Notes under the pieces: generated by a model
The model's database searches: none
Seen by the model: only the letters and a program-made list of their open reading frames with translations
Told to the model about the DNA's origin: nothing
Program-made: the position numbers and the translations under genes
Part shown: positions 8,573 through 62,610 of the stretch, piece by piece
Layout: each line of letters starts with the position of its first letter
How positions within the stretch are numbered: the stretch's first letter is position 1
Assembly: GCF_963921235.1 (NCBI RefSeq)
Contig: NC_086097.1
Span: 59,956,001 to 60,020,000 of the forward strand
Source of the DNA: Mobula hypostoma
Taxonomy: Eukaryota
Direction: 5' to 3'
DNA: 64,000 nt

Positions 8573-11245
8573 TATCCTTGTGGGCAGGTTTGCTAAAGCT
8601 GTTGGGAAGGGTTTAAACTAATTTGGCAGAGGGATGGAAACCAGAGTGGTAGGGCTGAGGATGGGACATTTTGTATACAACTAGATGCAGTGTGTCGAGA
8701 GACTGTGAAGAAATACAGCAGATGATAGGGCAAAATTGCAGTCAGTGGGATGAGTTGCCGTGCAACATGGGGACAAAATCTAAAAGGGTGATGAATACAG
8801 GACTGAAGGTGTTATATTTGAATGTACGCCATATACGGAATTTGGTAGATGATCTTGTAGCGCAGTTAGAGATTGGTAGAGATGATGTTTTGGGCTTCAC
8901 TGAGCCGTGGCTGAAGGAAGATCATAGTTGGGAGCTTAACATCCAAGGATTTACATTGTATTGATAAGACAGGCTGGTATGCAGAGGAGGTAGGGCGGAT
9001 CTGTTGGTTTATGTCCTTAGAAAGAGATGACATAAGATCAAAATGTGTAGAATCCTTGTGGGTAGAGTTAAGAAACTTCAAGGGTAAAAAGATCCTGATG
9101 GGAGTTATATACAGGCCTCCAAACAGTAGCCAGGATGTGGTCCACAAGTTACAACAGGAGGTAGAAAATGCATGTGAAAGGGCAATGTTGTGCGACTCAT
9201 GGGAGATTTCAATATGCAGGTAGATTGGGAAAATTAGTTTGCTGCTAGATTCCATAAGAGAGAATTTGTAGAGTGCCTATGAGATGTCTTTTTGGAGCAG
9301 TTTGTGCTTGAACTCACTAGAGGAATGGTAATTCTAGATTGGGATTTATGTAATGACCCAGGTTTGATTAGGGAGGTTAATATAAAAGAACCCTCAGGAA
9401 GCAATGATCACAATATGATTGAATTCACACCACAGCTTGAGAAGAAGAGGGTAAAATCAGATGGAGCAGTATTACAGTGGAGAAATGGGAATTGCAGAGG
9501 CCTGAGAGAGGAACTGGCCAACATTAATTTGAAGGGGACACTAGCAAGGATGACAACTGAACAGCAATAGCTGGATTTCATCAAAATGTCACTGGCAACC
9601 TATATGATCAAAGGTGACTTGCAGTCAATTCACAAAATTACTTCTTCTTTTAAATATGCTTCTGGTATTAAACTGTGTTTGATTGGAGCCTGTCATTTAC
9701 ATCTTGATGATATGTTTTTTTGGGCAGACTTAGTGATCTGGTGCTTTTTCTGTCTCCAGGGGACCATGGTATGGTTGAGAGTGAGATTAAAACAAAGTGT
9801 GTGACCTAATGGCAGAGTGCAAATCCATGATCAGCTCCATGACTCGCCGTTCTCACAGATGAAAGTATTGAGGAAGATGAGAGCGGAAGGTGATCGGGTG
9901 TTCAGTGCCATCTGCCTGTGTTTAACCAGTCTCGCTCTCCCTCTCGTTTTCTGGCTGCTGGAGGAAAATGCAGAGTCCTGAGTCTTGGGAAGGTTTGGAC
10001 TCCTTGATTCCATGTGTTTTTAGAGGACTCTGCAGTTCCTGTTACAATATGTGTTTTTGGTTTCTGTTTACACATGCTTTATTTCTATTTTGAGCAATTT
10101 TGATTGGAGTGCTTCAATGAGGACTGGCTCTACAGCCTGCAGCCAATGAATGGCACAGCAGTAACCTGAACTGAACTGAACTAAGCTAAACATTCCTACA
10201 CTGATTCAAATACTCTGCTGTTTGATATTTAACATTCTCTGTGTTATTTGCTTCTTTTTGCTGTTTGTGCAATTTGTTCTTTTTTTCACACATTCGCATG
10301 TTTGATGTTCTCTTTGAATTGGCTCCATGGTGTTTCTTTGTTTTGTGGTTGCCTGCAGGAAGACAAATCTTTGGGTTGTATACTGCATACCTACTTTGAT
10401 AATAAATATACTTTGAATCTTTTAATCTTTGAGTTTCTGGGAGCAATTTGGAAGGCAAAGTAAAGACACATCCTAAAGATCAAGAAGTATCCTAAGGAGA
10501 GGAAGAGGCAATCTAAGTCAAAGACAGCAGAAAAGCAAGGGAGAGGGCATATAATATAGCCAAAATTAATGGGAAGATAGAGGTTTGGGAAGCTTTTAAA
10601 AACCAACAGAAGGCAACTTAAAAAGTCATAAAGAAAGAAAAGATGAAATATGAAGCTAAACTAGCCAATAATATTAATGAGGATACAAGAAGTTTTCTCA
10701 GATATATAAAGGGTAAAGGAGATTAAAGAGAATATCAGGACACTAGAGAGGTAATAATGGGGGACAAAGAAATGGCAGTTAGACTTAATATGTATTTTGC
10801 ATCAGTCTTCACTGTAGAAGACACTAGCAGAATGCCAGAAATGTGAGTGAGTCAGGAGCAGAAATGAGTGTCATTGATATTACCAAGGAGAAGGTGCTTG
10901 GGAAGCTGAAAAGTCTGAAAGTAGATAAGTCATCTGGACCAGATGGACTACACCCCAGGGTTCTGAAACAGATAGCTAAGAGATTATGGAAGGATTAGTA
11001 ATGATCTTTCAACAAGTTTTACATTCTGGAATGGTTCCAGAGGACTGGAAAATTGCAAATGTCATTCCGCTCTTTAAGAAGGGAAGGAGTCAGAATAAAA
11101 GAAATTTTCTATGATTAAGGATGAGGCTTTGGTGTACTTGGAGGCACATGATAAAATAGTCAGCACGATTTCCTTAAGGGGAAACATATGTTGGGATTCT
11201 TTGAGGAAATAACAGGCAGAAGAACAAAGGAGAGTCACTGGATGT
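8572..11245 (+). mobile_element. Decayed CR1 LINE from ORF1 3' end through APE to start of RT, interrupted at ~9575-10430
   Basis: ILVGRFAKAVGKGLN* ORF1 end at 8574-8621; APE peptides in ORFs 8671-8964, 9011-9223, 9292-9570; DKSSGPDGLHPRVLK at ~10925. Confidence 0.88.
9805..10431 (+). mobile_element. Non-autonomous non-LTR element inserted in CR1
   Basis: Ends AATAAA plus a degenerate tctttga tail at 10401-10431; CR1 sequence resumes as gagtttctgggagc immediately after. Confidence 0.55.
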
Positions 11246-16789: not shown

Positions 16790-17572
16790 TATTTTTTTTA
16801 ACTTAACAACACCACATGGAAAAGTCTCTTCTGGTCCAACGAGCTGCACTGCCCAGAAACCACCTATTCAACACTAGCCCAATCACAGGACACTTTACAA
16901 TTTACCATGTGCAATTAACCTACTAACTGGTATGTCTCTGGACAGTGGGAGGAAACTGGAGCACCAGGAGAAATCCATGTGCTTCACAAACAGAACGTAC
17001 AACAACTCCTTACAGATGGTACTGGAATTGAACTCAGAACTCCTGAATAGACAATAGACAATAGGTGCAGGAGTAGGCCATTTGTCCCTTTGAGCCAGCA
17101 CTGCCATTCACTGTGATCATGGCTGATCATCCACTATCAGTATCCAGTTCCTGCCTTATCCCCATAACCTTTGATTCCACTATCTTTAAGAGCTCTATCC
17201 ATCTCTTTCTTGAAAGCATCCAGAGACTTGGCCTCCACAGCCTTCTGGGGCAGAGCATTCCATATATCCACCACTCTCTGGGTGAAAAAGTTTTTCCTCA
17301 ACTCCATTCTAAATGGCGTACCCCTAATTCTTAAACTGTGGCCTCTGGTTCTGGACTCACCCATCAGCGGGGACATGCTTCCCACCTGCAGCGTGTCCAA
17401 TCCCTTAATAATCTTATATGTTTCAATAAGATCCCCTCTTAGCCTTCTGACTTCCAGAGTATACAAGCCCAGTTGCTCCAATCTTTCGACATATGACAGT
17501 CCCGCCATCCCAGGAATAAACCTTGTAAGCTGTAATAGTATTGTGCCAACAGCTACACTACCATGGTGTCCA
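16790..17572 (-). mobile_element. V-SINE interrupted by a CR1 3' fragment
   Basis: SINE body 16790-17046 (gggaggaaactggagcacc, ggaattgaactc B-box) continues at 17526-17572 (A-box region tggtagtgtagctgttggcac on the minus strand). Confidence 0.75.
17047..17525 (-). mobile_element. Young CR1 3' fragment
   Basis: ORF 17137-17508 AGLSYVERLEQLGLYTLEVRRLRGDLIETYK...WNALP; (TATTGTC)n tail at 17047-17063. Confidence 0.92.
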
Positions 17573-17893
17573 TGTTAATTTTACAATGGCAAATTAGGCC
17601 TTTAATATGGCAGCTCCCATTTAGATTACCTATACAGTGGAGATCAAGTAAACACTGAAATTTTAAAAAATCCCGATTATAATCACACTAATCCTTTCCT
17701 TTTTTTAAACCTGACATGCCTATAAAATATTATTCAGGAATGAAACAGACTATTAATTATTAATGAAACTGCAGCTAACATTCCAGATATAGGGTGTCAA
17801 CTCTTCGACAGTCCATTTCTCCCCATATTTTCTCCACCAATTTTTCCTTTTGCTCCAGATTCCAGCATCTGCAATGTTTTGTGTCACTAATTT

Positions 17894-18826
17894 TGTCATG
17901 GTCCAGTCCATGAAGTCCGTGTTCCAGATCACGGTCCGGTCCATGATTCACTGTTCTGGGGTTTCTGGTTTTCCCCGGTTTCTGGTTTTCCCCAGTTTCT
18001 GTTGTGGGCACATGATTCTCGTTTTGGGGCTGAGACATAAATACCTCTGCAAACCAGGGATTCCCTGTTGGACTGTCCTGTTCCCCTCCTTGTCTTTCTC
18101 CTCTTGCCTGACTCTCTGCCTGCTCACCTAGCCTGGACACCCCACCTGTATCGCTGAAGTTTTACCACCGGAGCAAGACCGGAGCCTTGTAAGGAACTGT
18201 CTTTTGTTGTGTGGAATTGTCTTTCTGTGTCCACGCCTTCGCTAGGTAGGTCTGGCAGTCTGCCGCTACCTAGTGTTGAGATCTGTCTCTCCATGTTCAG
18301 CGTTCTGTGTATGAGTCCAGGCCCTACGTCCTGTTCCCAAGGAGAGATCCTGGCTCTGTGTTATGTGTATGAGTCCTGGCCCTATGTCCTGTTCCCAAGG
18401 AAGGGTCCCGGCTCTGTGTTCCATGCTCCCATCTCTTCTAGTCCAAGGTTCCATGCTCCTGAAGGCCTTCGTCCAGTCCGTGTACTTAGTCCAGTCCTAT
18501 TGAAGTCTTGTCTATGTGCCTTTAACTGTCCTTCTGTCTCGCAATACCCAGAAGTTCCTCACTCAAGCCATGTTAAGTCCTGTAGCCTCGTCTTGTCCTC
18601 GCCTAGTTCTGGAGTCCGAGCCCGAGTCAAGTCCCAGGTTCTGGGTCCTTGACCAATCCATACCCAAGCCTCAAGACCCCAAGCCTGTCTCCAAGCCTCA
18701 AGCCTCAAGAACCCAAGCCTGTCTCCAAGCCTCAAGCCTCAAGACCCCAAGCTTGTACTCCTGTTGCTTGTACTTCAGTGTCTGTGTCTTGCATTTGGGT
18801 CCATTCCCAACGTCCCCATTGTGACA
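17894..18826 (+). mobile_element. Solo LTR, Gypsy-type
   Basis: Termini TGTCA...TGACA; 5-bp direct repeat AATTT at 17889-17893 and 18827-18831; TATA-like cataaata at ~18036; internal tandem repeats. Confidence 0.85.
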
Positions 18827-20057: not shown

Positions 20058-21270
20058 TAGAACATAGAACATAGAATAGTACAGCACAGTACAGGCCCTT
20101 CGGCCCACAATGTTGTGCCGACCCTCAAACCCTGCCTCCCATATAAGCCCCCACCTTAAATTCCTCCATTTGCCTGTCTAGTAGTCTCTTAAACTTCACT
20201 AGTGTATCTGCCTCCACCACTGACTCAGGCAGTGCATTCCAAGCACCAACCACTCTCTGAGTAAAAAACCTTCCTCTAATATCCCCCTTGAACTTCCCAC
20301 CCCTTACCTTAAAGCCATGTCCTCTTGTATTGAGCAGTGGTGCCCTGGGGAAGAGGCGCTGGCTATCCACTCTATTTATTCCTCTTATTATCTTGTATAC
20401 CTCTATCATGTCTCCTCTCATCTTCCTTCTCTCCAAAGAGTAAAGCCCTAGCTCCCTTAATCTCTGATCATAATGCATACTTTCTAAACCAGGCAGCATC
20501 CTGGTAAATCTCCTTTGTACCCTTTCCAATGCTTCCACATCCTCCCTATAGTGAGGTGACCAGAACTGGACACAGTACTCCAAGTTGGCCTAACCAGAGT
20601 TTTATAGAGCTGCATCATTACCTCACCACTCTTAAACTCTATCCCTTGACTTATGAAATCTAACACCCCATAAGCTTTCTTAACTATCCTATCCACCTGT
20701 AAGGCAACTTTCAGGGATCTGTGGACATGTACCCCGAGATCCCTCTGCTCCTCCACACTACCAAGTTTCCTGCCATTTACTTTGTACTCTGCCTTGGAGT
20801 TTGTCCTTCCAAAGTGTACCACCTCACACTTCTCTGGGTTGAACTCCATCTGCCACTTCTCAGCCCACTTCTGCATCCTATCAATGTCTCTCTGCAATCT
20901 TTGACAATCTTCTACACTATCTACAACACCACCAACCTTTGTGTCATCTGCAAACTTGCCAACCCACCCTTCTACCCCCACATTCAGGTCATTAATAAAA
21001 ATCACGAAAAATAGAGGTCCCAGAACAGATCTTTGTGGGACACCACTAGTCACATCCTCCAATCTGAATGTACTCCCTCCACCACCACCCTCTGCCTTCT
21101 GCAGGCAAGTCAATTCTGAATCCATCTGGCCAAACTTCCCTGGATCCCATGCCTTCTAACTTTCTGAATAAGCCTACCGTGTGGAACCTTGTCAAATGCC
21201 TTACTAAAATCCATATAGATCACATCCACTGCACTACCCTCATCTATATGCCTGGTCACCTCCTGAAAGA
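20058..21270 (-). mobile_element. Young CR1 LINE 3' 1.2 kb (RT domain)
   Basis: ORFs 20484-21125 (TSGVPQRSVLGP, KFADD) and 20125-20583; (TTCTATG)n tail at 20058-20076. Confidence 0.95.
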
Positions 21271-21382
21271 TTTAATTTAAATATCTCCTAATATTTAAGA
21301 AGATTTCTAAGATTAATAAAAAGTAAAATATCAGTGGATCGTCAAAATATATTCCTGATGCATTTATGTGTATCTTTTACTA

Positions 21383-22008: not shown

Positions 22009-23635
22009 TATATACAGAATTATGAGAATGTGCTATGTATTTCACATCAAATGAATATCTAGGTTTAATGAGACTCCAGATGTTGGAAAAATAATGACAA
22101 TCAGAAGAACTTTTAAAAACTTGTTGAAGTGTCACAAAAATTAATTTTCAGTCTTATCATCTCCTGGATGATTGGTTAAAATAAAGTTACTTTTAAATAA
22201 AGTCATAATCATCTTGTTCTTCAGCCACCTTTTTCAGTAAATCTTCAATACCATATTGTTTTTTCACATTGTGAAGTAAGTAATGTTTCTGGTGAAAAAG
22301 ACAAATAAATTCTATTGAGAATAACAACTTTTGTTGATGATAATATGGAAACCTCATCTTCAAAAATCACTGAAAATACATACTCCATATAATAAAATGG
22401 TTGTGTTTATCTCTTCACTTCCAGACTAAAGGAATCAAACAACTTTTTTACATCAATGCAGTTTATCTCCCTATGTAAAGACACGTTAATGGAACACATA
22501 TGCAGAGACTCGTGTTTGCTGTCTAAAGCAATGAAGCAATCGAGTTGTTACTCATTTAATAAGGTGCCAAGGATGACTCCTTTCATTAATCTTGCATCAA
22601 CCTGGACTGCGGTAATTAGCATACAATTTTGTCTTGGTTAACAACCTCCTCGTAATTTTATCTTTGATTGGTCTATGTTGGTTATCACTTCCTTTTGCAA
22701 CCAAAGCACACAACTTAGATATACATATGGAATCAAACTGAAGAAACATTCAATTTACATGATGCGTGATATGTAAACAGAAGCAGAAAATTTTCAATTA
22801 TAAATGCACAAGATCAACAGGAAGGAAAATATCAGCTAACTTACAAACATGCTCCGCAAAACCATAACACTTGGAACATCATAATTCATCGTCTATGTTG
22901 ATCACTACATACATCTGCTGTGCCAGATGGGAACCCCACAGTAATCTATTCTCTTTGTCCACTAAACCTGGTTCAGGAGGTCACGCAGACAGTTGAAAAG
23001 CCCCCGTGTATACATGATTTGACTTTGAAATTGAACCTCACAGGAGCAGGCTCTTTAGTCAACAACATCCATGCTGAACAGAATGTCAAATTAAACAAAA
23101 TCTCTTCTGCCTGTACTCAATCCTCTATTCCCAGCATAATCACATGTCTAACAGCCTTTTAACTGCCACCATCGTATCTGCCTCTACCTCGACTTCTAGC
23201 ACGCCATTCCAGACATTCCTGCTGTCTGTGGAAAAAAAGAGTCAGTCAGGTCTATTAATGCATCAAATACATTTTGCCGGAAATTTGGCCTTGGTTATTG
23301 TCTCCAAATGCACAATATCAAAAATTCTGGAAATACTTTTATGGAAACATTTTCTATGTTTCTATGTTTCTAAAAAGGAATCCTCCAGTTTGCCTGTTTA
23401 CTGATGCTGTTTAACCTGCTAAGTGTTTCCAGTATTTTCTATTTTTATTTCATTATATTTCATTTCACACGTACATTACACTTCACACATGAATTTGTGT
23501 ACAGTGTTTCCATTGTTCTCTCCATGGGGAGTCAATTTGGTGTAAACAAACTGCACAACATGTGTTCAGAGGCCCAAAAAGAAGGATGAAATCCAATTAT
23601 CAGCAGTTCTACCAGACTGGGAGATTAACAACATG

Positions 23636-26071: not shown

Positions 26072-27062
26072 TCATAGAACATATAGAATAGTACAGCTCA
26101 GTACAGGCCCTTTGGCCCACAATGTTTTGCTGACCCTTAAACCCTCCCTCCCATATAACCCCCCCACCTTAAATTCCTCCATATACCTGTCTAGTAGTCT
26201 CTTAAATTTCACAAGTGTATCTGCCTCCACCACTGACTCAGGCAGTGCATTCCAAGCACCAACCACTCTCTGAGTTAAAAACCTTCCTCTAATATCCCCC
26301 TTGAACTTCCCACCCCTTACCTTAAAGCCATGTCCTCTTGTATTGAGCAGTGGTGCCCTGGGGAAGAGACGCTGGCTATCCATTCTATCTATTCCTCTTA
26401 ATATCTTGTACACCTCTATCATGTCTCCTCTCATCCTCATTCTCGCCAAAGAGTAAAGCCCTAGCTCCCTTAATCTCTGATCATAATGTATACTGTCTAA
26501 ACCAGGCAGCATCCTGGTAAATCTCCTCTGTACCCTTTCCAATGCTTCCATATCCTTCCTATAGTGAGGCAAGCAGAACTGGACACAGTACTCCAAGTGT
26601 GGCCTAACCAGAGTTTTATAGAGCTGCATCATTACATTGCGACTCTTAAACTCTATCCCTCGACTTCTGAAAGCTAACACCCCATAAGCTTTCTTAACTA
26701 CCCTATCTACGTGTGAGGCAACTTGCAGAGATCTGTGGACATGTACCCCCAGATCCCTCTGCTCCTCCACACTACCAAATATCCTACCATTTACTTTGTA
26801 CTCTGCCTTGGAGTTTATCCTTCCAAAGTGTACCACCTCACACTTCTCCGGGTTGAACTCCATCTGCCACTTCTCAGCCCACTTCTTCATCCTATCAATG
26901 TCTCTGTGCAATCTTCGACAATCCTCTACACTATCTACAACACCACCAACCTTTGCGTCATCTGCAATCTTGCCAAACCACCCTTCTACCCCAACATCCA
27001 GGTCGTTAATAAAAATCACAAAAAGTAGAGGTCCCAGAACAGATCCTTCTAGGACACCACTA
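26072..27062 (-). mobile_element. Young CR1 LINE 3' 1 kb, same subfamily as 20058-21270
   Basis: ORF 26072-27019 (IADD, WQMEFNPEKC, LVRPHLEYCVQF); near-identical to 20060-21050. Confidence 0.95.
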
Positions 27063-27254
27063 GCTTCCCATAAAGGCTGGGTGGATAAGTCCTGACTCCA
27101 GACACCTACAATGATGTGGTCTCTATTGTACCTGAGGTTCCTGCAAAGTGCCTTGTGAACAGTTACCTTTCTCTGGATCTAGACCAAAGGTAATTTCTGG
27201 TTGGGACCTGAAGGTACAAGGAATCTGTCTTCAGAGTGAATCACGTGTAAAGTA

Positions 27255-36184: not shown

Positions 36185-37982
36185 TTGTAAGGGATAAAAT
36201 TGGTCCTCTTGAAGATCAGAGTGGTCAGCTATGTGCGGAATCAAAGGAAATGGGGGAGATCTTAAATAGGTTTTTTGCATCTGTATTTACTAAGGAAACT
36301 GGCATGAAGTCTATGGAATTAAGGGAATCAAGTAGTGAGATCATGGAAACTGTACAGGTTGAAAAGGAGGAGGTGCTTGCTGTCTAGAGGAAAATTGAAG
36401 TGGATAAATCTCCGAGACCTGACGGGGTGTTCCCTCGGACCTTGAAGGAGACTAGTGTTGAAATTGCAGGGCCCTGGCAGAAATATTTAAAATGTCGCTG
36501 TCTACAGGTGAGGTGCCGGAGGATTGGAGAGTGGCTCATGTTGTTCCGTTGTTTAAAAAAGGATCGAAAAGTAATACAGGAAATTATAGGCCAGTAAGTT
36601 TAACGTTGGTAGTAGTTAAGTTATTGGAGGGAGTACTAAGAGACAGAATCTACAAGCATTTGGATAGACGGGGACTTATTAGGGAGAGTCAACATGGCTT
36701 TGTGCGTGGTAGGTCATGTTTGACTAATCTATTGGAGTTTTTTGAGGAGGTTATCAGGAAAGTGGATGAAGGGAAGGCAGTGGATATTGTCTACATAGAC
36801 TTCAGTAAGGCCTTTGACAAGGTCCCGCATGGGAGGTTAGTTAGGAAAATTCAGTTGCTAGGTATACATGGAGAGGTGGCAAATTGGATTAGACATTGGC
36901 TCAATGGAAGAAGCCAAAGAGTGGTGGTAGAGAATTGCTTCTCCGAGTGGAGGCCTGTGACTAGTGGTGTGCCACAGGGATCAGTGCTGGGTCCATTGTT
37001 ATTTGTTATCTATATCAATGATCTGGATGATAATGTGGTAAATTGGATCAGCAAATTTGCTGATGATACAAAGATTGAGGGTGTAGTAGACAGTGAGGAA
37101 GGTTTTCAGAGCCTGCAGAGGGACTTGGACCAGCTGGAAAAATGGGCTGAAAAATGGCAGATGGAGTTTAATACAGACAAGTGTGAGGTATTGCACATTG
37201 GAAGGACAAACCAAGGTAGAACATACAGGGTTAATGGTAAGGCACTGAGGAGTGCAGTGGAACAGAGGGATCTGGGAATACAGATAAAAAATTCCCTACA
37301 AGTGGCATCACAGGTAGATAGGGTCGTAAAGAGAGCTTTTGGTACATTGGCCTTTATTAATCAAAGTATTGAGTATAAGAACTGGAATGTTATGATGAGG
37401 TTGTATAAGGCATTGGTGAGGCCGAATCTGGAGTATTGTGTTCAGTTTTGGTCATCAAATTACAGGAAGGATATAAATAAGGTTGCAAGAGTGCAGAGAA
37501 GGTTTACAAGGATGTTGCCGGGACTTGAGAAACTCAGTTACAGAGAAAGGTTGAATAGGTTAGGACTTTATTCCCTGGAGCGTAGAAGAATGAGGGGAGA
37601 TTTGTTAGAGGTATATAAAATTATGTTGGGTATAGATAGAGTGAATGCAAGCAGGCTTTTTCCACTGAGGCAAGGGGAGGAAAAAAAACAGAGGACATGG
37701 GTTAAGGGTGAGGGGGGGAAAAGTTTAAAGGGAACATTAGGTGGGGGCTTCTTCACACAGAGAGTGGTGGAAGTATGGAATGAGCTGCCAGACGAGGTGG
37801 TAAATGCGGGTTCTTATTTAACACTTAAGAATAAATTGGACAGATACATGGATGGGAGGTGTATGGAGGGATATGGTCCGTGTGCAGGTCAGTGGGACTA
37901 TGCAGAAAATGGTTCGGCACAGCCAAGAAGGGCCAAAAGGCCTGTTTCTGTGCTGTAGTTTCTATGGTTTCTATGGTTTCTA
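36185..37982 (+). mobile_element. Young 5'-truncated CR1 LINE inserted in the RTE
   Basis: Contains ORF 36492-37958; (TTTCTATGG)n tail. Confidence 0.95.
36492..37958 (+). CDS. CR1 ORF2 reverse transcriptase domain (partial, 488 aa)
   Basis: NYRPVSL, QHGF, DFSKAFDKV, GVPQGSVLGP and FADD motifs all present; a short segment near the C-terminus appears frameshifted. Confidence 0.85.
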   Translation: MSLSTGEVPEDWRVAHVVPLFKKGSKSNTGNYRPVSLTLVVVKLLEGVLRDRIYKHLDRRGLIRESQHGFVRGRSCLTNLLEFFEEVIRKVDEGKAVDIVYIDFSKAFDKVPHGRLVRKIQLLGIHGEVANWIRHWLNGRSQRVVVENCFSEWRPVTSGVPQGSVLGPLLFVIYINDLDDNVVNWISKFADDTKIEGVVDSEEGFQSLQRDLDQLEKWAEKWQMEFNTDKCEVLHIGRTNQGRTYRVNGKALRSAVEQRDLGIQIKNSLQVASQVDRVVKRAFGTLAFINQSIEYKNWNVMMRLYKALVRPNLEYCVQFWSSNYRKDINKVARVQRRFTRMLPGLEKLSYRERLNRLGLYSLERRRMRGDLLEVYKIMLGIDRVNASRLFPLRQGEEKKQRTWVKGEGGKSLKGTLGGGFFTQRVVEVWNELPDEVVNAGSYLTLKNKLDRYMDGRCMEGYGPCAGQWDYAENGSAQPRRAKRPVSVL

Positions 37983-48478: not shown

Positions 48479-50309
48479 AAAAGTAGGCACCCCTCTCATA
48501 AAAAAATAATTAATACCACATATCTCAGCTTCTTAATTTGGTAATAAGATGACTTTGATATCATTAAATTACCGTATGGTAGTGGGAGAAAATGAAGAAA
48601 AACCTGAAGGTGCTGGAAATCTAAAATAAAAGCAGAAAATGCCAGAACTACTCAATGGATCAAGTCACATCTGTGGGAAGAGAAAAAGAGTTAAAATTTT
48701 GGGTTGAAGAAGAATGCTGATGAAAGGATGATTTTCAGCCTATACCTCACAGAAGCTGAACAACCCCTCACACCCTTCACTGGATCACATCTGCCCTGAG
48801 TCCCTCAGATAGTCACTAATGTTTTTTTTCACGGGAGGTTGTACTTCCACAGTCTACAACCTCTCAGTTCCCTACAGCAATCAGTCCACCTCTATCTCCT
48901 TCAGCCCCCTCTTGACTCACAGCTTTCTCTTGTATCATGATAGTTAGAGAGGCTATCAATATGCAGGTAGTATGGAAAATCTCATTGGTAATGGATCCAA
49001 AGAGAGGGAGTTAGTTGAATGCCTAAAAGATGGCTTTTTGTAGCAGCTTGTGTTCAAAAGATCACAAGACAAAGGAGCAGAAGTAGGCCATTCGGCCCAT
49101 TGAGTCTGCTCCGCCACTCCACCATGAGCTAAACTATTCTTCCATTTATTTCCAGTTTCTGGCTTTTCCCCCATATCCCTTGATGCCCTGACTAATTAGA
49201 TAACTATCCATCTCCTCCTTAAACGGTCTCAATGATTGGGCCTCCACAGCTGTATGTGGCAACGAATTCCAATAATTCAAGACTCTCTGCTTAAAAAAAA
49301 TTTCTCCTCATCTCTGTTCTAATTCTAGGACTGTGGCCTTTTGTCCTGGACTCACCCACCAAGGGAAACAGCCGTTCCACACCTACTCTGTCCAACACTT
49401 TCAAAATTTGAAATGTTTCTATGAGATCCCCTCTCATTCTTCTATACTCTAATGAATACAGTCCAAGAGCTGACAAACGCTCCTCATATGTTAGCCCTTG
49501 CATTCCAGGAATCAGCCTTGTAAATCTTCTCTGAACTCTCTCCAACATCTGAACATCCCTTCTAAGAACTGCACACAGTATTCCAAATGAGGTCTCACCA
49601 GTGCCCCATAGAGCTTCATCAACACCTTCTTACTCTTATACACTATTCCTCTTGAAATGAATGCCAACTTAGCATTCGCTTTCCTTACTGCCGATCCAAC
49701 CTGGTGATTAACCTTTAGGGTATCCTGCACAAGGACCCCCAAGTCTCTTTGCACTTCTGATTTTTGAATTTTCTCCCCATCTAAATAATAATCTGCCTGA
49801 TTATTTCTTCTTCCAAAATGTAAAACTGTACATTTCTCAACGTTGTATCTCATCTGCCATTTCTTTGCCCACTCTCCTAAACTGATCAAGTCTCTCTGCA
49901 ACCTTTCCACTTCTTCAACACTTCCTGCTCCTCCACCTATCTTGGTGTAATCCACAAATTTAGCCACAAAACCATTTAATCCATAATCTAAATCATCGAT
50001 ATACATTGTAAAAAGAAGCGGCCCCAACACCGACCCCTGCGGAACACCACTAGTAACCAGCAACCAATCAGAATAGGATCCCTTTATTCCCACTCTTTGC
50101 TTTCTGCCTATCAGCCAATGCTCCACCCATTCCAATATCTTTCCTGTAATTCCATGGGCTCTCATCTTATTAAGCAGCCTCTTATGCAGCACCTTATCGA
50201 AGGCCTTTTGAAAATCCAAATACACACATCCAGAGCCTCTCCCTTATCAATCTCATTTGAGATTACCTCAAAAAATTCCAATAGGTTGGTGAGGCAGGAT
50301 CTTCTCTTC

Positions 50310-50796
50310 GATAGTAAGGGGGTCAGATAGGCGATTCTGTGGACGTAGTCCAGAGACCCGGATGGTAGTTTGCCTCCCTGGTGCCAGGGTCCGGGATATT
50401 TCTGATCGTGTCCAAGATATCCTGAAGTGGGAGGGTGAGGAGCCAGAGGTCGTGGTACATATAGGTACCAATGACATAGGTAGGAAAAGGGATGAGGTCC
50501 TGAAAGGAGAATATAGGGAGCAAGGAAGGGAGTTGAGAAAAAGGACCGCAAAGGTAGTAATCTCAGGATTACTGCCTGTGCCACGCGATAGTGAGAGTAG
50601 GAATGTGATGAGGTGGAGGATTAATGCGTGGCTGAGGGATTGGAGCAGGGGGCAGGGATTCAAGTTTTTGGATCATTGGGACCTCTTTTGGCGCAGGCGT
50701 GACCTGTACAAAAAGGACGGGTTACACTTGAATCCTAGGGGGACCAATATCCTGGCAGGGAGATTAGCAGGGGCTACTGAGGTGACTTTAAACTAG
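50310..50796 (+). CDS. CR1 ORF1, SGNH/GDSL esterase domain (5'-truncated)
   Basis: SIVRG (block I remnant), LPGA, VHIGTND (block III), DGLHLN (block V); stop TAG at 50794-50796. Confidence 0.9.
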
Positions 50797-53700
50797 AATG
50801 GTTGGGGGGTGGGAATCAAATTAAAGAGGCTAGGCGTGAGGAGGTTAGTTCACAACAGAGGGATGGGAACCAGTGCAGAGAGACAGAGGGGTGTAAAGTG
50901 AGCGTAGAAGCAAAAAGTACAAAGGAGAAAAGTAAAAGTGGCAGGCCGACAAATCCAGGGCAAGCATTAAAAAGGGCCATTTTTCAACATAATTGTACAA
51001 GGGCTAAGAGAGTTGTAAAAGAGTGCCTGAAGGCTTTATGTGTCAATGCAAGGAGCATTCGTAATAAGGTGGATGAATTGAAAGTGCAGATTGTTATTAA
51101 TGATTATGATATAGTTGGGATCACAGAGACATGGCTCCAGGGTGACCAGGGATGGGAGCTCAACGTTCAGGGATATTCAATATTCAGGAGGGATAGACAT
51201 GAAGGAAGGGGAGGTGGGGTGGCGTTACTGGTTAAAGAAGAGATTAACGCAATAGAAAGGAAGGACATAAGCCGGGAAGATGTGGAATCGATATGGGTAG
51301 AGCTGCGTAACACTAAGGGGCAGAAGACGCTGGTGGGAGTTGTGTACAGGCCACCTAATAGTAGTAGTGGGGTCGGAGATGGTATTAAACAGGAAATTAG
51401 AAATGTGTGCAATAAAGGAACAGCAGTTATAATGGGTGACTTCAATCTACATGTAGACTGGGTGAACCAAATTGGTAAAGGTGCTGAGGAAGAGGATTTC
51501 TTGGAATGTATGCGGGATGGTTTTTTGAACCAACATGTCGAGGAACCAACTAGAGAGCAGGCTATTCTGGACTGGGTTTTGAGCAATGAGGAAGGGTTAA
51601 TTAGCGATCTTGTCGTGAGAGGCCCCTTGGGTAAGAGTGACCATAATATGGTGGAATTCTTCATTAATATAGAGAGTGACATAGTTAATTCAGAAACAAA
51701 GGTTCTGAACTTAAAGAGGGGTAACTTTGAAGGTATGAGACGGGAATTAGCTAAGATAGACTGGCAAATGACACTTAAAGGATTGACGGTGGATATGCAA
51801 TGGCAAGCATTTAAAGGTTGCATGGATGAACTACAACAATTGTTCATCCCAGTTTGGCAAAAGAATAAATCAAGGAAGGTAGTGCACCCGTGGCTGACAA
51901 GAGAAATTAGGGATAGTATCAATTCCAAAGAAGTAGCATACAAATTAGCCAGAGAAAGTGGCTCACCTGAGGACAGGGAGAAATTCAGAGTTCAGCAGAG
52001 GAGGACAAAGGGCTTAATTAGGAAGGGGAAAAAAGATTATGAGAGAAAACTGGCAGGGAACATAAAAACGGACTGTAAAAGCTTTAATAGATATGTAAAA
52101 AGGAAAAGACTGGTAAAGACAAATGTAGGTTCCCTACAGACAGAAACAGGTGAATTGATTATGGGGAGCAAGGACATGGCAGACCAATTGAATAATTACT
52201 TTGGTTCTGTCTTCACTAAGGAGGACATAAATAATCTTCCAGAAATAGTAAGGGACAGAGGGTCCAGTGAGATGGAGGAACTGAGTGAAAGACATGTTAG
52301 GAGGGAAGTGGTGTTAGGTAAATTGAAGGGATTGAAGGCAGATAAATCCCCAGGGCCAGATGGTCTGCATCCTAGAGTGCTTAAGGAAGTAGCCCAAGAA
52401 ATAGTGGATGCATTAGTGATAATTTTTCAAAACTCGTTAGATTCTGGACTAGTTCCTGAGGATTGGAGGGTGGCTAATGTAACCCCAATTTTTAAAAAAG
52501 GAGGGAGAGAGAAACCGGGGAATTATAGACCGGTTAGCCTAACGTCGGTGGTGGGGAAACTGCTGGAGTCAGTTATCGAGGATGTGATAACAGCACATTT
52601 GGAAAGCGGTGAAATGATCGGACAAAGTCAGCATGGATTTGTGAAAGGAAAATCATGTCTGACGAATCTCATAGAATTTTTTGAGGATGTAACTAGTAGA
52701 GTGGATAGGGGAGAACCAGTGGATGTGGTATATTTGGATTTTCAAAAGGCTTTTGACAAGGTCCCACACAGGAGATTAGTGTGCAAACTTAAAGCACACG
52801 GTATTGGGGGTAAGGTATTGGTGTGGGTGGAGAATTGGTTAGCAGACAGGAAGCAAAGAGTGGGAATAAACGGGACCTTTTCAGAATGGCAGGCGGTGAC
52901 TAGTGGGGTACCGCAAGGCTCAGTGCTGGGACCCCAGTTGTTTACAATATATATTAATGACTTGGATGAGGGAATTAAATGCAGCATCTCCAAGTTTGCG
53001 GATGACACGAAGCTGGGTGGCAGTGTTAGCAGTGAGGAGGATGCTAAGAGGATGCAGGGTGACTTGGATAGGTTGGGTGAGTGGGCAAATTCATGGCAGA
53101 TGCAATTTAATGTGGATAAATGTGAAGTTATCCACTTTGGTGGCAAAAATAGGAAAACAGATTATTATCTGAATGGTGGCCGATTAGGAAAAGGGGAGAT
53201 GCAACGAGACCTGAGTGTCATTATGCACCAGTCATTGAAAGTGGGCATGCAGGTACAGCAGGCGGTGAAAAAGGCGAATGGTATGCTGGCATTTATAGCG
53301 AGAGGATTCGAGTACAGGAGCAGGGAGGTACTACTGCAGTTGTACAAGGCCTTGGTGAGACCACACCTGGAGTATTGTGTGCAGTTTTGGTCCCCTAATC
53401 TGAGGAAAGACATCTTTGCCATAGAGGGAGTACAAAGAAGGTTCACCAGATTGATTCCTGGGATGGCAGGACTTTCATATGAAGAAAGACTGGATGAACT
53501 GGGCTTGTACTCGTTGGAATTTAGAAGATTGAGGGGGGATCTGATTGAAACGTATAAGATCCTAAAGGGATTGGACAGGCTAGATGCAGGAAGATTGTTC
53601 CCGATGTTGGGGAAGTCCAGAACGAGGGGTCACAGTTTGAGGATAGAGGGGAAGCCTTTTAGGACCGAGATTAGGAAAAACTTCTTCATACAGAGAGTGG

Positions 53701-53834
53701 TGAATCTGTGGAATTCTCTGCCACAGCAAACTGTTGAGGCCAGTTCATTGGCTATGTTTAAGAGGGAGTTAGATATGGCCCTTGTGGCTACGGGGGTCAG
53801 GGGGTATGGAGGGAAGGCTGGGGCGGGGTTCTGA
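50787..53834 (+). CDS. CR1 ORF2: APE endonuclease plus reverse transcriptase, uninterrupted
   Basis: Frame open from 50781; NARSIRNK, ITETW, YRPP, GDFN, SDH (APE); QHGF, DFQKAFD, GVPQGSVLGP, FADD (RT). The track start at 50802 is TTG; the first in-frame ATG is at 51432. Confidence 0.95.
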   Translation, partial: FKLEWLGGGNQIKEARREEVSSQQRDGNQCRETEGCKVSVEAKSTKEKSKSGRPTNPGQALKRAIFQHNCTRAKRVVKECLKALCVNARSIRNKVDELKVQIVINDYDIVGITETWLQGDQGWELNVQGYSIFRRDRHEGRGGGVALLVKEEINAIERKDISREDVESIWVELRNTKGQKTLVGVVYRPPNSSSGVGDGIKQEIRNVCNKGTAVIMGDFNLHVDWVNQIGKGAEEEDFLECMRDGFLNQHVEEPTREQAILDWVLSNEEGLISDLVVRGPLGKSDHNMVEFFINIESDIVNSETKVLNLKRGNFEGMRRELAKIDWQMTLKGLTVDMQWQAFKGCMDELQQLFIPVWQKNKSRKVVHPWLTREIRDSINSKEVAYKLARESGSPEDREKFRVQQRRTKGLIRKGKKDYERKLAGNIKTDCKSFNRYVKRKRLVKTNVGSLQTETGELIMGSKDMADQLNNYFGSVFTKEDINNLPEIVRDRGSSEMEELSERHVRREVVLGKLKGLKADKSPGPDGLHPRVLKEVAQEIVDALVIIFQNSLDSGLVPEDWRVANVTPIFKKGGREKPGNYRPVSLTSVVGKLLESVIEDVITAHLESGEMIGQSQHGFVKGKSCLTNLIEFFEDVTSRVDRGEPVDVVYLDFQKAFDKVPHRRLVCKLKAHGIGGKVLVWVENWLADRKQRVGINGTFSEWQAVTSGVPQGSVLGPQLFTIYINDLDEGIKCSISKFADDTKLGGSVSSEEDAKRMQGDLDRLGEWANSWQMQFNVDKCEVIHFGGKNRKTDYYLNGGRLGKGEMQRDLSVIMHQSLKVGMQVQQAVKKANGMLAFIARGFEYRSREVLLQLYKALVRPHLEYCVQFWSPNLRKDIFAIEGVQRRFTRLIPGMAGLSYEERLDELGLYSLEFRRLRGDLIETYKILKGLDRLDAGRLFPMLGKSRTRGHSLRIEGKPFRTEIRKNFFIQRVVNLWNSLPQQTVEASSLAMFKRELDMALVATGVRGYGGKAGAGF

Positions 53835-56800
53835 GTTGGATGATCAGCCATGATCATAATAAATGGCGGTGCAGGCTCGAAGGGCCAAATGGCCTACTCC
53901 TGCACCTATTTTCTATGTTTCTATGTTTCTATGAAACCATGCTGGCTTGGGCCTACCTTGCCATGCACCTCGAGGTATTTCATAACCTTGTCCTTGAGGA
54001 TTGAATCTAATAACTTTCCAAGTACTGATGTCAGACTAATAGGTCTGTAATTTTCTTTTTGCTGCGTCCCTCCTTTCTTAAAAAGCGAAACTACATTTGC
54101 GACCTTCCAGACCTCCAGAACTATGCCAGAGTCTATTGATTCCTGGTAGATCATTTCCAATGCCCCCACAATCTCCAAAGCCACCTCCTTCAGAATCCAT
54201 GGGTGCACCTCATCCGGTCCGGGAGACTTATCTATTCTTAGTCCATCTAGCTTCCCAAGCACTGTCTCTCTAGTAATCTTGACTGTACCTAATTCTATTC
54301 CCTGAGACCTCTGGCTATCAGGTATGTTACTAATGTCTTCCACTGTGAAGACTGATGCAAAATACTCATTTAGTTCCTCTGCCATCTCTTTGTTACCCAT
54401 TATAATTTCTCCAGCATCATTTTCAATCAATCCTATATCTACCCGTGTCACTCTTTTACTCTTCATATATTTTTTAAAAACTCTTAGTATCCTCTTTAAT
54501 GTTAATTGCCAACTTCCTTTCATAATTCATCTTTTCTTTCCTAATGACTTTCTTAGTTTCCTTCTGTGTTTTTAAAAGTCTTCCTGTCCTCAGTTTTCCC
54601 ACTAATTTTTGCTTCCTTGTATGCCGTCTCTTTTGCTTTTATTTTAGACTTAACCTCTCTCGTTAGCCACTTCTGTGCCATTTTTCTATTCATGATTTTC
54701 TTTTACTCTTGGAATATATTTTTCCTGCACTTTCCTTATTTCTTGTAGGAATTTCATCCAATTCTGCTCTACCGTCCCTCCATCTAGTTTACTTTTCCAA
54801 TCTACTTGGGCTAGTTCCACTCTCAGACCACTGTAATTTCCCTTGTTCCACTGAAATATCGATACACCTAATACCAGCTTCTCCTTTTCAAATTTGAAAC
54901 TGAACTCAATCATATTATGATCACTACTTCCAAGGGGTTCCATTACCTCCAGCTCCCTAATCGCCTCAGGTTCATTACTCAGCACCCAATCCAAAACATC
55001 TGATCCCCTGGTGGGCTTATGGACAAGCTGCTCCAAAAAGCCATCCTGTAGGCATTTTACAAACTCCCTCTCCTGAGATCCAGTACCTTCCTGACTTTCC
55101 CAATCCACTTTCATATTAAAATCCCCCATAATTATCTTGACATTTTCCTTCTGACACACTTTTTCTATTTCCAGCTGTAACTTGTAGTTCACATCCCGGC
55201 TGCTGTTTGGAGGCCTGTATATAACTACTATTAGTGTCTTTTTACCTTTGCCATTTCTTAACTCAACCCATAAGGAGTCTACCTCTTCTGATCCTGTGTC
55301 CCTTCTTTCTAGTGATTTGATATCATTACTTACCATCAGAGTCACGCCACCCCCTTTACCTACCTTCCTAACTTTCCTATACACTGTGTATCCTTGGACA
55401 TTCAGCTCCCAATCACATCCATCATTTAGCCATGACTCGGTGATGGCCACAATGTCATATCTTTTAACCTGTAGCTGTATAACAAGGTCATCCACTTTAT
55501 TTCTAATGCTACGTTCACTTAAGTACAATACATTTAGATTAGTATCTGTTACCGATTTTGTTATATTTCTATCGCACAGCAAATTATCCTGTCTATTCAC
55601 CTGCCTGACCTTCTTGCCATCTTTACTGCACAGTATCTTTGACTTATTTCTATTTTCCTCTTCCTTGACCCTAACATCCTGGTTTCCTTCCTCCTGCCAA
55701 CTTAGTTTAAACCCTCCCTAGCAGCTATATTAAACAATCCCGCTAGGATATTAGCACCCTTTGTGTTCAGGTGTAACCCATCATTTTTGTATAAATCACA
55801 CCTCCCCCAAAATAGTTCACAATGATCCAAGAATTTGAAGCACCAGTTACTTAGCCACACATTCATCTGCTTAAGTCTGCTATTCTTACCTTCATTAGCG
55901 CGTGGCTCAGGCAGTAATCCTGAGATTATTACTCTGGAGGTCCGGCTTTTCAATTTTATTCCTAGCTCCCAGTAATCTTCCTTCAGGACCTCCTCTCTTT
56001 TTCTGTCTATGTCATTGGTACCAACATGTACCAAGACTTCTGGCTGCTTGCCTTCTCTCCTCAGAATACTCTGGACTAGATCTGAGACATCCCGTACCCT
56101 GGCACCAGGGAGGCAACACACCATCCAGGTATCCTTGTCTGGCTCGCAATCTCTTGTCTGTTCCCCTCACTATGGAATCCCTTATAACTACTGTATTTCT
56201 CCTTGCTCTCTTGATCACGGCACTGGGCAGAGTGCCAGAGTCCCGTTCGCTGTGGTCTTCCTCTGTCAGGTCAACCTCTCCAACAGTATCTAAAACGATA
56301 TATCGATTTCTGAGGGGGACTGTCACAGAGGTGCTGTCCACTATCTCTCTATAGGTATTATCAATCACCTCCTCACTTTCCCTAATTAGCTGAAGATCAT
56401 CAAATTACAGCTCCAGATCCCTAACAATGTTTGAGCCCACTGGGGAAAACGTAATTCTGTCTTGGGCATTGTGTAATGAATCAGATTTGATTAGGGAGCT
56501 TAAGGTAGGCAATGAACATAATATGATAGAATTAACCCTAAGTTGAGAGAGAGAAGCTAAAGTCAAATGTATCAGTATTACAGTGGATTAAAGGGAATTA
56601 CAGAGGCATGAGAGAAGAACTGGCCAAGTTGATTGTTAGGGGACACCAGCAGGAGTGACAGCAGAATAGCAATGGTTGATGTTTCTGGAAGCAATGCGGA
56701 AGGCGGAGGATAGACATTTCCCAAAACAGAAGAAGTATTCTAAAGGCAGGATGGTGCTATTGTGGCTGACAAGGGAAGTCAAAGACAGCATAAAAGCAAA

Positions 56801-57267
56801 CTAGAGGCCACATGATAGAGAAAAATTAGTGAGAAGGTAGAGGATTGGGAAGCTTTTAAAAACCAACAGAAGCCAACTAAAAAAGCCACAAGGAAAGAAA
56901 AGGTGAAATATGAAAGTAAGAAAGCCAATAATATAACAGAGGATACAAGAGATTTTCTCAGGTATATAAAGAGTAAAAGAGAGATGAAAGTGAATATTGG
57001 ACTTTTGGGAAATGATGCAGGAGAAGCAGTAATGGGGGACAAAGGAATGGCAGATGAACTTGAGTAATTTGTGTCTTTTTTCACTGTGGAGGAATCTAGC
57101 AGTTTGAAAGAAATTCTAGAGTGTCAGGGAGCTTAACTGAGTGTAATTTCTATTACTACAGTGTAGGTCTGAAGGTAGATGTCACCTAGACCAAATGGAC
57201 TATACCCAGGCTTCGGAAAGAAGTTGCTGAAGAGATTGTGGAGGCATTAGTATTCATCTTTCAAGAA

Positions 57268-57920
57268 CCGATAAATGCTTTCAGTGTAATCAAGAAATTG
57301 GTACTTTTTTACATTCTACTTGGTCTTGTTTTAAAATTCAACCCTTTTGGATAAATTTAAGAGTCTTATTGGAACAAATTACTGGAACTCAACTTCCACA
57401 TAACCCTGTATTATTTCTATTAGGTGATATTGAAGGGATAAAGCCGAAACTTTAATTAAATAAATATCAGAAAGAATTTATAAAAATTGCATTGGCAGTA
57501 GCTAAGAAGACTATAGCAGTTACTTGGAAATCTGATTCGTGTTTAAGTATGAATCGTTGGAATAATGAAATGGCTAGTTCTGTTCCACTTGAAAAAATTA
57601 CTTATAATTTAAGAGATAAATATGTAACATTTTTGAATATTTGGCACCCTTATTTACGAAAGGTAGGATGGCATATTTAAGTGCTCCGATAAAGATCTTG
57701 GTCCCTTGGGGAAAGTAACAAATAAGTATACCAAATTTATTTTGAACTCCATGGAGCATGTGGAAACCTTCCAACACCCAGGCGGTTCTCCTTTGTTTTC
57801 TTCTTCTTTTTTAGGTAGGACTATATATGGGGGGGGGAGGGTTAAGGGGAGGGGGGAGGGTAGACACTATCTTTTCATGTATTCATTTTGAAAATTCAAT
57901 AAAAATTATATTTTTTAAAA
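57268..57920 (+). mobile_element. L1-clade LINE 3' fragment
   Basis: DKCFQCNQEIGTFLHSTWSC (CCHC knuckle), AKKTIAVTWK, IWHPYL; G-rich 3' UTR, AATAAA and A-rich tail; aagaa repeated at 57263-57267 and 57921-57925. Confidence 0.88.
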
Positions 57921-60439: not shown

Positions 60440-62610
60440 GAATGTACAGCCACAGAGTTTCTGCTCAACTGCGAGAGCAGGACTGTGAAAAGGGGACTTA
60501 ATTCCATAGGGATGGGCTTCACCTGAATCAAGTTGAAAGCACTGCTTTAGAAAATTGAATCATAATGGCTTTTAGTGAGGCCTTAAATCAGGCATTTCCA
60601 ATCTGGGGAGCAGGGACCCCTTGCTTAAAAAACCCTGCCCGAACTGAAATAGATGGAAAGGAGGTTCAGGTGAAGGAAAATTAAGGAAGCTGAGTAGAAA
60701 AAAAAACCTTGTGATAGTATTTACAGCCACTAGTTGCCAGATCGTTGGTTTTGCCTGTGTGCTAATTAATGTTTCCCAGCCGCTTAGGACTGTGTGCTCT
60801 AAGTTTTGCTCCAGTACTGAGAATCACCTGTGAAACTCAGTCTCTTCATGTCAAGATCAGTTTTCTAAGTTCTACTCCAGTTCCGAGGTTTACCTGTGAA
60901 ACCCAGCCTCTCCGCGTCAAGATAAGTCTTCTAAAGTTTTACTTCAGTACCGAGGTTTGCCTGTGTAACTCCGTCTCTCTGTGCTAAGAAGAGTTTTGTC
61001 TGCCCTTTCCCTTTCTACGCTCCGTGTCAAGATAATTCTGCCTGTCTCCTGCCTTCCTGCTCTCCATCCTGTTGGCCGTTCACATCTGCATCCTAACTAA
61101 ATCTCCATGCCTGTGTCCTGCACTTGGGTCCGCCTCATTTGTTGCAACAGAGTAGTCCATTGTAGAATGGGCCTGGTCTGCTCGAAGCTTGTAGCAGCTT
61201 AATGGGCTGAATAGTCTGCTTCCATGCTGTACTCAGTAAGAACGGAGCGAATGAGGACCTGAGGAAACTAGCACCAGTAAAATATGAGCGTTGATGAAAT
61301 TCAGGAAAACTAATAAATCGCAGGACTTGATGACTTGCATGCTAACACTTTGATTAAGGTCACTTTGGAGATAATGGTTATTGTCTTCAAAACTTCAATT
61401 GATTCTAAAATCGTGCCCAGAATCTGGAAAGTACAACATGTACTCCTTTGATTGAAGAAAATAAAAGGCTGCATCTGTAGTAAGAGGAAGTGTTGATGTT
61501 TCTAGACAAAGATCCTGGCCTGGACCTGAGTTTATATGATGGGATATTCCACCTGAAACATGAACTCTGGCCATTACTCATGAAATGAGGAAGGAGGAAA
61601 TGGGGGTTATAGGCCAATCGACTTGAGCAAAGTTGGGAAAATATTAGAATCTCTTATGAAGAAGAAATGACAGACCACTTGGAAAATATTAACAGGATTG
61701 CATGGATTTATGAAAGGAAAATTATGTCTGACCGATCATTTCAGTTTTGAAATTGGAACTTGCTAAATAGATATAGGCAAAACAGTTGGTACGGTATACT
61801 TGGACCTCCGATGGTCTTTGAGTAGGTGCCTCAAAAGAAGTCATTAAACAAAGTTTAAGATTAGGATGTTGGGGGCAATTTATTGATGTTAATTGCGGAT
61901 TGGTTAACTGATAGAACGCACAAATAGGAACAAGCAAACAAGTCATGTTTAGTTTGAAAAACAGGTTGCTGAAGAGATTGGAGCAGGGCTTCAGCTGTTC
62001 ACAATCTTTATCAATGATATGAATGAGGGCATCGAGTGTAATATGTTTAGGTTTTCTAATGATACAAAAATCTGTGCTAGTGAGAGCTATGAGGAGAATG
62101 TTGAAGGGCGTCAAGGGATCTAGGCAGTTTGACTAGATGGGTAAGTGCATGGGAAAAGTGAATCAATGTGGTAATGTGACACTGTGCACTATCATTATAA
62201 ATTGGAAGGTAAAGCATTTCTAAATGATTAGCAGATCAGAAGCTGATGGATGCTTTTGTATATTAACCACTAAGGGTTTGCATACAGCAGGAAAGATTAA
62301 TATTATGTTGCATTTTATCATAAGAGGATTTGAATACAAGAATAAAGATGCCATACTGCAATCACATGGTTTGCTGGTGAGCCCACACCTGGAATATTAT
62401 TCACAGGTCTGATCTCCTACCTCGGACGTAGAGATATAGAGGAATGTAAGGAAAGTTTACCATGATAATATTTGGGGTTGGAGTGTGGACTTGTCCTTTG
62501 AGGAATGATTTTGAGCCAATAATTACTAGAAATTATAAGAATGAGATTTGTACTCATAGAAAATATAAGTTTCTTACCTTTTTGACGGTGTAGAGGCAGG
62601 GAAGGCTTCT
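60440..62610 (+). mobile_element. Very old CR1 (ORF1 DGLHLN remnant, RT remnants) with insertions
   Basis: gatgggcttcacctgaat (DGLHLN) at ~60511; IRGFEYKNKDAILQ...LVSPHLEY at 62224-62412. Confidence 0.65.
60710..61149 (+). mobile_element. Degenerate LTR-like element with 3 x 66-bp tandem repeat
   Basis: Units start at 60799, 60865 and 60931; 3' ctgtgtcctgcacttgggtcc...aca shares the terminal motif of the solo LTR at 18782-18826; 5' boundary uncertain. Confidence 0.55.

Follow-up and report, generated by a model that had tools for sequence, protein, structure and literature searches.

The 64,000-nucleotide stretch of Mobula hypostoma DNA that we analysed (the window) contains a nest of copies of CR1-type long interspersed nuclear elements (LINEs) in a cartilaginous-fish genome. 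In these elements, a first open reading frame (ORF1) encodes an SGNH esterase and a second (ORF2) an apurinic/apyrimidinic endonuclease (APE) followed by a reverse transcriptase (RT). We examined the ORF1/ORF2 junction in three copies, E1, E2 and E4; among named relatives, a Mobula protein is the closest to E1 ORF1, at 96%. ORF1 of E2 ends on the minus strand with GGT TTA AAC TAA (55713-55702), and the slippery heptamer TTTAAAC (55711-55705) directly precedes the stop codon, as read in a preliminary description of the window. The same description had the -1 frame running without a stop or an AUG into the endonuclease. Indeed, this frame is open from 55717 to 54686 (343 amino acids), begins FKLSWQEEGNQ, and matches Pfam Exo_endo_phos from residue 72. 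Counted in codons after the shift site, the first endonuclease motif (N-A-R-S-type) is found at 63, and the first Met only at 124. When these endonucleases are combined into a profile, the motif is matched to residues 10-14 of the L1 endonuclease, in its first strand (single-sequence PDB searches with the endonuclease gave no match, and the profile was needed). The T-E motif and this strand would thus be missing from an ORF2 protein (ORF2p) that starts at the AUG.

The 186-nucleotide E2 linker contains no stop in the -1 frame, five in the 0 frame and eight in the +1 frame, and the -1 frame was open in 0.3% of 5000 base shuffles of this linker. As had been stated, it differs in length from that of E1 (62 versus 84 codons), and an in-frame GTG starts at position 55600. 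We considered this GTG as a start for ORF2 and rejected it, given its weak context and the absence of a matching codon common to the lineages. The UAAUG stop-start overlap is absent from E1, E2, E4 and every junction locus that we fetched. TTTAAAC occurs 16 times in the window and is followed by TAA or TAG in four cases, three of which are located at CR1 ORF1/ORF2 junctions. In E4 (8700-8840, plus strand), an in-frame ATG occupies approximately the position of the E2 GTG, with two more before the endonuclease, and a similar linker ATG is present in a stingray consensus row of the PMC13343379 supplement.

The preliminary description regarded E2 as a second, divergent CR1 lineage, and its retention of heptamer, phase and the peptide FKLxW...GNQ as independent support for frameshifting. 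This argument does not carry the weight placed on it. F-K-L is not independent because TTT AAA CTA is the -1 reading of the heptamer plus stop; the product of tandem slippage is L-N followed by L, and F and K are not made. W and GNQ are common to the three window junctions and absent in L001-L005 and L023. The ORF1s of E1 (50311-50793, plus strand) and E2 (55705-56148, minus strand) have 59% identity, and of the 84 degenerate residues that they share 67% are written with the same codon, so that two shared codons prove little; descent alone would keep both with odds near 0.45. In ORF2 the identity is 46%, and the codon is the same at only 34% of 144 residues. This contrast suggests a later exchange of the ORF1 module, perhaps including the junction, between CR1 lineages. 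The two-lineage argument for frameshifting is thus weaker than stated, and we therefore searched for distant relatives by queries other than the heptamer. The frameshift model itself is supported by these wider lineage data.

Codon conservation at distant CR1 junctions

With the ORF1 alignment as query we obtained 17 loci from metagenomes and, from bacterial assemblies, 10 that are apparently host DNA. We left out three bacterial esterases (L013-L015) and two contigs ending short of the junction (L010, L012). The remaining 22 junction loci represent about five lineages. TTTAAAC TAG is found in 16 of them, one more keeps the heptamer with a decayed stop, and five single copies are off by one base. 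Four of these five carry other lesions; L007 ends 5 nucleotides later, and the change in L006 is synonymous, its stop being mutated as well. Neither a synonymous change of the Leu-Asn codons nor a stop in the linker was found at the lineage level.

We compared codons among E1, E2, L001, L002, L003 and L005, whose ORF1s are 32-71% identical. In 37 columns all six lineages share one degenerate residue, and a single codon has been kept in three of these: one Gly, the terminal Leu (TTA) and the terminal Asn (AAC). Both junction codons are thus invariant, versus only 1 of the 35 other columns. The codon preceding TTA AAC ends in T in all seven lineages checked, while coding for T, G, H, Y or C. The joint chance of this pattern, calculated from the codon use of each element, amounts to some 1e-9 with six lineages and 2e-5 with three distant ones. 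The linkers (84, 62, 33, 42, 42, 37 and 36 codons) vary in length, their -1 frame is open in seven of seven, and Met is absent from six. These findings together indicate that the junction is under nucleotide-level selection far beyond E1 and E2.

We also searched the consensus table of PMC13343379 for the motif, judging row text of up to 400 letters by eye. Heptamer plus stop was located at the ORF1 end in 18 of 23 matches, with all three stop codons occurring, in rows from alligator, crocodile, bearded dragon, bullfrog, coelacanth, bowfin, another bony fish, chimaera, sharks and rays. The same table contains 15 matches to six synonymous Leu-Asn-stop spellings, none of them read as lying at a CR1 ORF1 end, and one further spelling had none there among the 8 listed of 16 matches. 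The searched supplement of PMC11203168 gave no match, and that of PMC4316615 gave two, both in the ORF2 3' region. At the protein level, 41 of 46 motif-bearing ORF1 matches have L-N at the end, named records from lizard, turtle, frog and hummingbird among them. The distance from the catalytic motif to L-N is 21, 27, 28 or 34 residues; L-N therefore tracks the junction and not a helix. Neither the 15 rows of the L2-type clade nor the solved ZfL2-1 esterase, when aligned, has L-N.

To follow variation among related copies, contigs of three sequencing runs were mapped on 55440-55960; the summed contig depth reported here does not equal copy number. In run X1 it reached 628,000-828,000 at the junction, about 16,000-60,000 in the linker and 45,000-82,000 in the adjoining ORF1, so that the depth of related copies at the junction is about 10-50 times that of the flanks. 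Loose contig ends on both sides represent other lineages that match this core only. None of the 40 variants listed of 71 is within 55702-55711, and each listed variant attains about 37% in at least one run, so that the data are compatible with heptamer variants at 8-37%. Synonymous variation at about 40% was found in an upstream TTA codon. Linker variants (4 of 10 silent in the -1 frame, none making a stop) are mostly private to the window copy and thus provide a weak test of selection.

The animal CR1 copies found inside bacterial assemblies or under bacterial names (L018-L027, G001-G003; P0023, P0242) are host contamination. Assembly G001 has 25 ORF1-profile and 61 endonuclease-profile matches, and twelve further endonuclease loci in it have no esterase ORF1. 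Five database proteins (P0023, P0148, P0235, P0253, P0256) are fused gene models in which a natural one-base loss in ORF1 leads into the -1 linker, two of them reading on as far as the endonuclease. A different LINE (L047:1501-2400, plus strand) has a non-canonical esterase-like ORF1 and an ORF2 overlapping by about 110 nucleotides in the -1 frame, with no clean heptamer in the overlap and an AUG before the endonuclease.

The downstream G-run and possible other slippery heptamers

A run of five to six G residues starts at +11 after the heptamer, behind a 10-nucleotide spacer, in E1, L001, L002, L003, L005, L006 and L023. This fixed-distance G-run and the lack of structure downstream had gone unnoticed in the preliminary description. 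In six of seven linkers G5 occurs at +11 and nowhere else; the seventh is the decayed E2, whose copy reads GGAGG. Position 55692 is nevertheless G in 91% and 94% of the depth in two runs, which gives G5 in the family. The exact spacing recurs in six published rows (two alligator, crocodile, chimaera, sawfish and catshark), the others being shifted, noisy or without a G-run (PMC13343379). The run covers synonymous positions of the -1 frame, and its joint chance is about 2e-6 for six lineages that are not fully independent. An intramolecular G-quadruplex was rejected as a general answer because L001-L005 have one G-tract only, several being found in shark and amniote rows.

Other clades may use other heptamers. 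Among 90 motif-bearing ORF1 representatives, the equivalent place is occupied by L-N in 33, Q-G-N in 7 and x-K-N in 12. The residue before L-N has only pyrimidine-ending codons in 10 cases and only purine-ending ones in 1, versus 0 and 8 before G-N or K-N, a split that does not count independent events because the groups are clustered but interleaved in the tree. The apparent fit, deduced from proteins, is to the requirements of T TTA AAC, G GGA AAC and A AAA AAC, whose RNA forms U_UUA_AAC, G_GGA_AAC and A_AAA_AAC are listed with the most shift-prone heptamers (PMC5009743). P0144 and P0148, from one family, represent the same DNA in two frames, and this constraint gives A AAA AAY, 10 nucleotides and G5; their -1 frame enters the endonuclease, and the stop is 13 codons away. 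The stop of the x-K-N clade is about 10-13 codons past the site. The G-run was rejected as a general feature of this clade, since the residues of only one of nine testable proteins are compatible with G at +11 to +15. Seven proteins without L-N, G-N or K-N (P0067, P0083, P0091, P0109, P0113, P0145, P0176) carry F-F or F-L at about this place, possibly encoded by U UUU UUU/A heptamers.

The nested CR1 copies

On the minus strand, E2 covers about 56424 to 53934 and then 50310 to about 49060; E1 sits antisense in its RT region (Table 1). With an ORF1 frameshift near 56150, a 12-nucleotide deletion near 55839, the frame break at 54686 and the interruption by E1, E2 is a dead relic in which the putative frameshift signal is still present. 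Pfam Lipase_GDSL_2 scores over the cut-off in E1 ORF1 and under it in E2, and the esterase profile matches PDB 4c1b (E=1e-38). E1 ORF2 contains PF03372 and PF00078 within one frame; that of E2 contains PF03372 plus RT pieces (tblastn). The 3' tail of E1 is an 8-nucleotide unit repeated 3.6 times, and the E2 tail near 49060 is short, below the call of the repeat finder. In a tree of ORF1 esterases only, E1 and E2 are placed among vertebrate CR1-type ORF1s, separate from the L2-type clade.

Table 1. Features of the CR1 copies E1, E2 and E4 (window coordinates)
Feature	Coordinates	Strand	Remarks
E2 ORF1, upstream part	56012..56424	-	5'-truncated, other frame; matches intact relative P0005
E2 ORF1, SGNH esterase domain	55702..56166	-	last open frame; decayed copy
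E2 slippery heptamer	55705..55711	-	T TTA AAC in ORF1 phase (X XXY YYZ)
E2 ORF1 stop	55702..55704	-	TAA immediately 3' of heptamer; other lineages TAG or TGA
E2 G-run	55690..55694	-	+11 to +15 from heptamer; GGAGG in window copy
E2 -1 frame linker	55520..55705	-	62 codons, no stop, no ATG; in-frame GTG 55600-55598 inside
E2 ORF2, APE endonuclease part	54686..55519	-	first Met ~55336; frame break 54686
E2 ORF2, remainder	53934..54685	-	broken frames, reaching E1 insertion point
E2 RT and 3' end	49060..50310	-	far side of inserted E1
E1	50311..53933	+	5'-truncated CR1; intact 1017-aa -1 frame (APE and RT); 8-nt tail repeat; antisense inside E2
E1 junction	50787..50809	+	heptamer 50787-50793, TAG, 7 nt, G6 50804-50809
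E4 junction	8612..8633	+	third, decayed copy; heptamer, TAA, 7 nt, GAGGG; linker with three in-frame ATG before endonuclease

The nest at 48960-57300 has three levels, E1 being inserted in E2 and E2 in an older plus-strand CR1 fragment (48987-49085, 56433-57279), and no clear target-site duplications were found in it. Many other 5'-truncated CR1 RT fragments and two additional tail repeats of 8-9 nucleotides are located in the window (36462-37982, plus strand; 23351-23372; 17137-17574, 20125-21271 and 26072-27178, minus strand), and tandem arrays occupy 18302-18420, 18665-18761 and 60798-60979. An Rfam scan of the window gave no matches.

Routes from ORF1 to ORF2

The heptamer, its phase, the open AUG-less linker, conservation at the nucleotide level, the fixed spacing of the G-run and the lack of detectable structure are observed features of this junction. 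From them we consider it likely, and with good confidence, that CR1 LINEs with an esterase ORF1 express ORF2 by programmed -1 ribosomal frameshifting as an ORF1-ORF2 fusion. Most ribosomes would end at the ORF1 stop and release the ORF1 protein (ORF1p). A minority would slip one base back on U UUA AAC, with the Leu and Asn tRNAs re-pairing on UUU AAA, and these ribosomes would decode CUR as Leu and cross the loosely constrained linker into the endonuclease and RT. This would yield ORF1p fused to ORF2p, a product of some 1,320 residues in an arrangement resembling Gag-Pol. The pause would probably come from the adjacent stop codon, from the linear G5-6 motif 10 nucleotides downstream or from both, and not from a hairpin or pseudoknot.

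A number of points weigh against this reading. We infer that ribosomes slip, that the fusion is made and that the G-run may play a part. Canonical -1 signals have a stimulatory structure 5-9 nucleotides downstream (PMC7618472). Here no local hairpin was found (fold z-scores of -1.7 to +1.2 in 24 folds), and a consensus structure of nine sequences has no pairs, as judged with tools that are blind to pseudoknots. No distant pairing partner of the G-run is common to five elements. In the absence of such a structure, the CR1 junction is therefore not classed as a canonical -1 signal. In 38 of the 90 relatives the equivalent place holds no L-N, G-N or K-N, and the tree clustering described above limits what the codon-ending split can say. 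No DNA for the Q-G-N and x-K-N clades was found in the viral contigs and plasmids scanned. Two of the 41 L-N proteins have a Glu before L-N, whose codon cannot end in T, and the mapped depth leaves room for heptamer variants of intermediate frequency. One in-frame AUG precedes the endonuclease in the L006 linker and three do so in E4, and three PMC13343379 consensus rows have UAAUG at the ORF1 stop, which is the SART1 signal. These AUG-bearing lineages keep the heptamer all the same.

The main rival explanation is that ribosomes terminate and reinitiate, or initiate at a non-AUG codon, near the ORF1 stop in the -1 frame, through UAAUG in the manner of SART1 or independently of an AUG as reported for L1, the conserved letters positioning or retaining the ribosome and ORF2p being made as a separate protein. 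Reinitiation is the accepted route for SART1 (PMC2881922) and L1 (PMC3894237, PMC3708506), it equally predicts an open linker, and it could draw on the UAAUG rows, on the linker ATGs of E4 and on the near-cognate codons present in each of the seven linkers. No near-cognate position is common to all seven lineages, however, and there is free variation (AGT, GAA, GAT, GGT, GTT) in the codon that overlaps the stop. Reinitiation also leaves unexplained the exact X XXY YYZ phase and the apparent switch among three slippery heptamers, and the stop of the x-K-N clade lies well beyond the site. We thus regard it as unlikely. The letters might instead serve in splicing, transcription or packaging, with ORF2 expressed from a separate or spliced transcript. 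Several lineages do have an AG before the G-run, and a branch-like word, CTAA or CTAG, overlaps the stop; the AG is missing in E1 and in the alligator and crocodile rows, no pyrimidine tract separates branch-like word and AG, and no recurrent joint was found at the junction among the mapped contigs, contigs being the only material for this comparison. Such a job at the RNA or DNA level gives no reason for the ORF1 phase or for the opening of the -1 frame at the heptamer, and we consider it very improbable.

The possibility that ORF1p simply needs a C-terminal Leu-Asn, codons and frame being inherited accidents, appears more improbable still. It can point to the L-N of vertebrate CR1, fixed 21 residues after the catalytic motif, and to the unsaturated ORF1 codons of E1 and E2. 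Between distant lineages, however, synonymous sites are near saturation (the E1/E2 and L002/L004 pairs apart, the same codon is used at a rate of 0.25-0.49) with TTA and AAC still invariant. The alternative spellings absent from CR1 ORF1 ends among the consensus-table matches, and the L2-type clade and solved esterase that lack L-N, also speak against a protein constraint, which moreover leaves ORF2 without a start. It is already largely refuted by the six-lineage codon comparison.

We compared the junction proposed for programmed frameshifting to known systems. The CR1 copies share with canonical CR1 (PMC13343379; ZfL2-1 esterase PDB 4c1b, PMC3905857) the SGNH esterase ORF1, the APE and RT of ORF2, 5' truncation and, in E1, the short tandem 3' tail. 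The available text of the CR1 papers (PMC13343379, PMC3905857, PMC4120745) differs from our account in that it describes two ORFs, with 'frameshift' unmentioned and the route to ORF2 not covered. In coronavirus and arterivirus ORF1a/1b and in retroviral gag-pol, the upstream ORF likewise has U_UUA_AAC in phase at its end, followed by a startless -1 polymerase (PMC5009743); the CR1 junction differs from these viral signals in having no detected pseudoknot or hairpin 5-9 nucleotides downstream, and its host is a cellular LINE. Similar in layout is the nsp2 -2/-1 frameshift in PRRSV, where a linear low-complexity motif follows a 10-nucleotide spacer with no obvious structure and the stimulator is bound by PCBP and nsp1beta (PMC4937337). 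The CR1 motif is G5-6 and not C-rich, and the likeness would be one of layout only. The Dictyostelium elements TRE5-A and TRE3-A are APE-type LINEs said in a figure legend of a review to need a -1 frameshift for ORF2 (PMC5911963); they belong to another clade with another ORF1, and the statement is the review's alone. In SART1 and L1, ORF2 translation is also coupled to ORF1 on one RNA, but ORF2p is a separate protein there, and most CR1 lineages have the slippery heptamer instead of UAAUG. For Paramecium LINEs, +1 shifting or reinitiation has been suggested (PMC5405496). Reviews call LINE ORF2 translation an open question, with reinitiation as the sole worked-out answer (PMC3894237, PMC3708506). 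A literature search, mostly without subscription papers and the 1997 CR1 descriptions, found no report of -1 frameshifting for CR1, and an earlier remark is possible.

Most vertebrate species have CR1 as their dominant retrotransposon (PMC13343379). If CR1 ORF2 is indeed expressed by frameshifting, an ORF2 annotated from the first AUG misses the first endonuclease strand, the real enzyme is an ORF1-ORF2 fusion made at a set ratio to ORF1p, and screens for intact CR1 elements should score the junction. The cassette from heptamer to G-run spans 23 nucleotides, and in its G-run we would have a candidate stimulator of a new kind. More tentatively, and with distinctly less confidence, we propose that CR1 elements of vertebrates and of distant animal hosts share one ancient recoding cassette, consisting of heptamer, 10-nucleotide spacer and unstructured G5-6. 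A host G-run-binding protein or ORF1p might bind it and regulate frameshifting, and RT would be made fused to the esterase ORF1p, the fusion assembling together with free ORF1p in the manner of Gag-Pol and Gag. If this is true, the dominant retrotransposon of birds, reptiles and sharks would carry a cellular -1 signal that is stimulated by a protein and free of structure.

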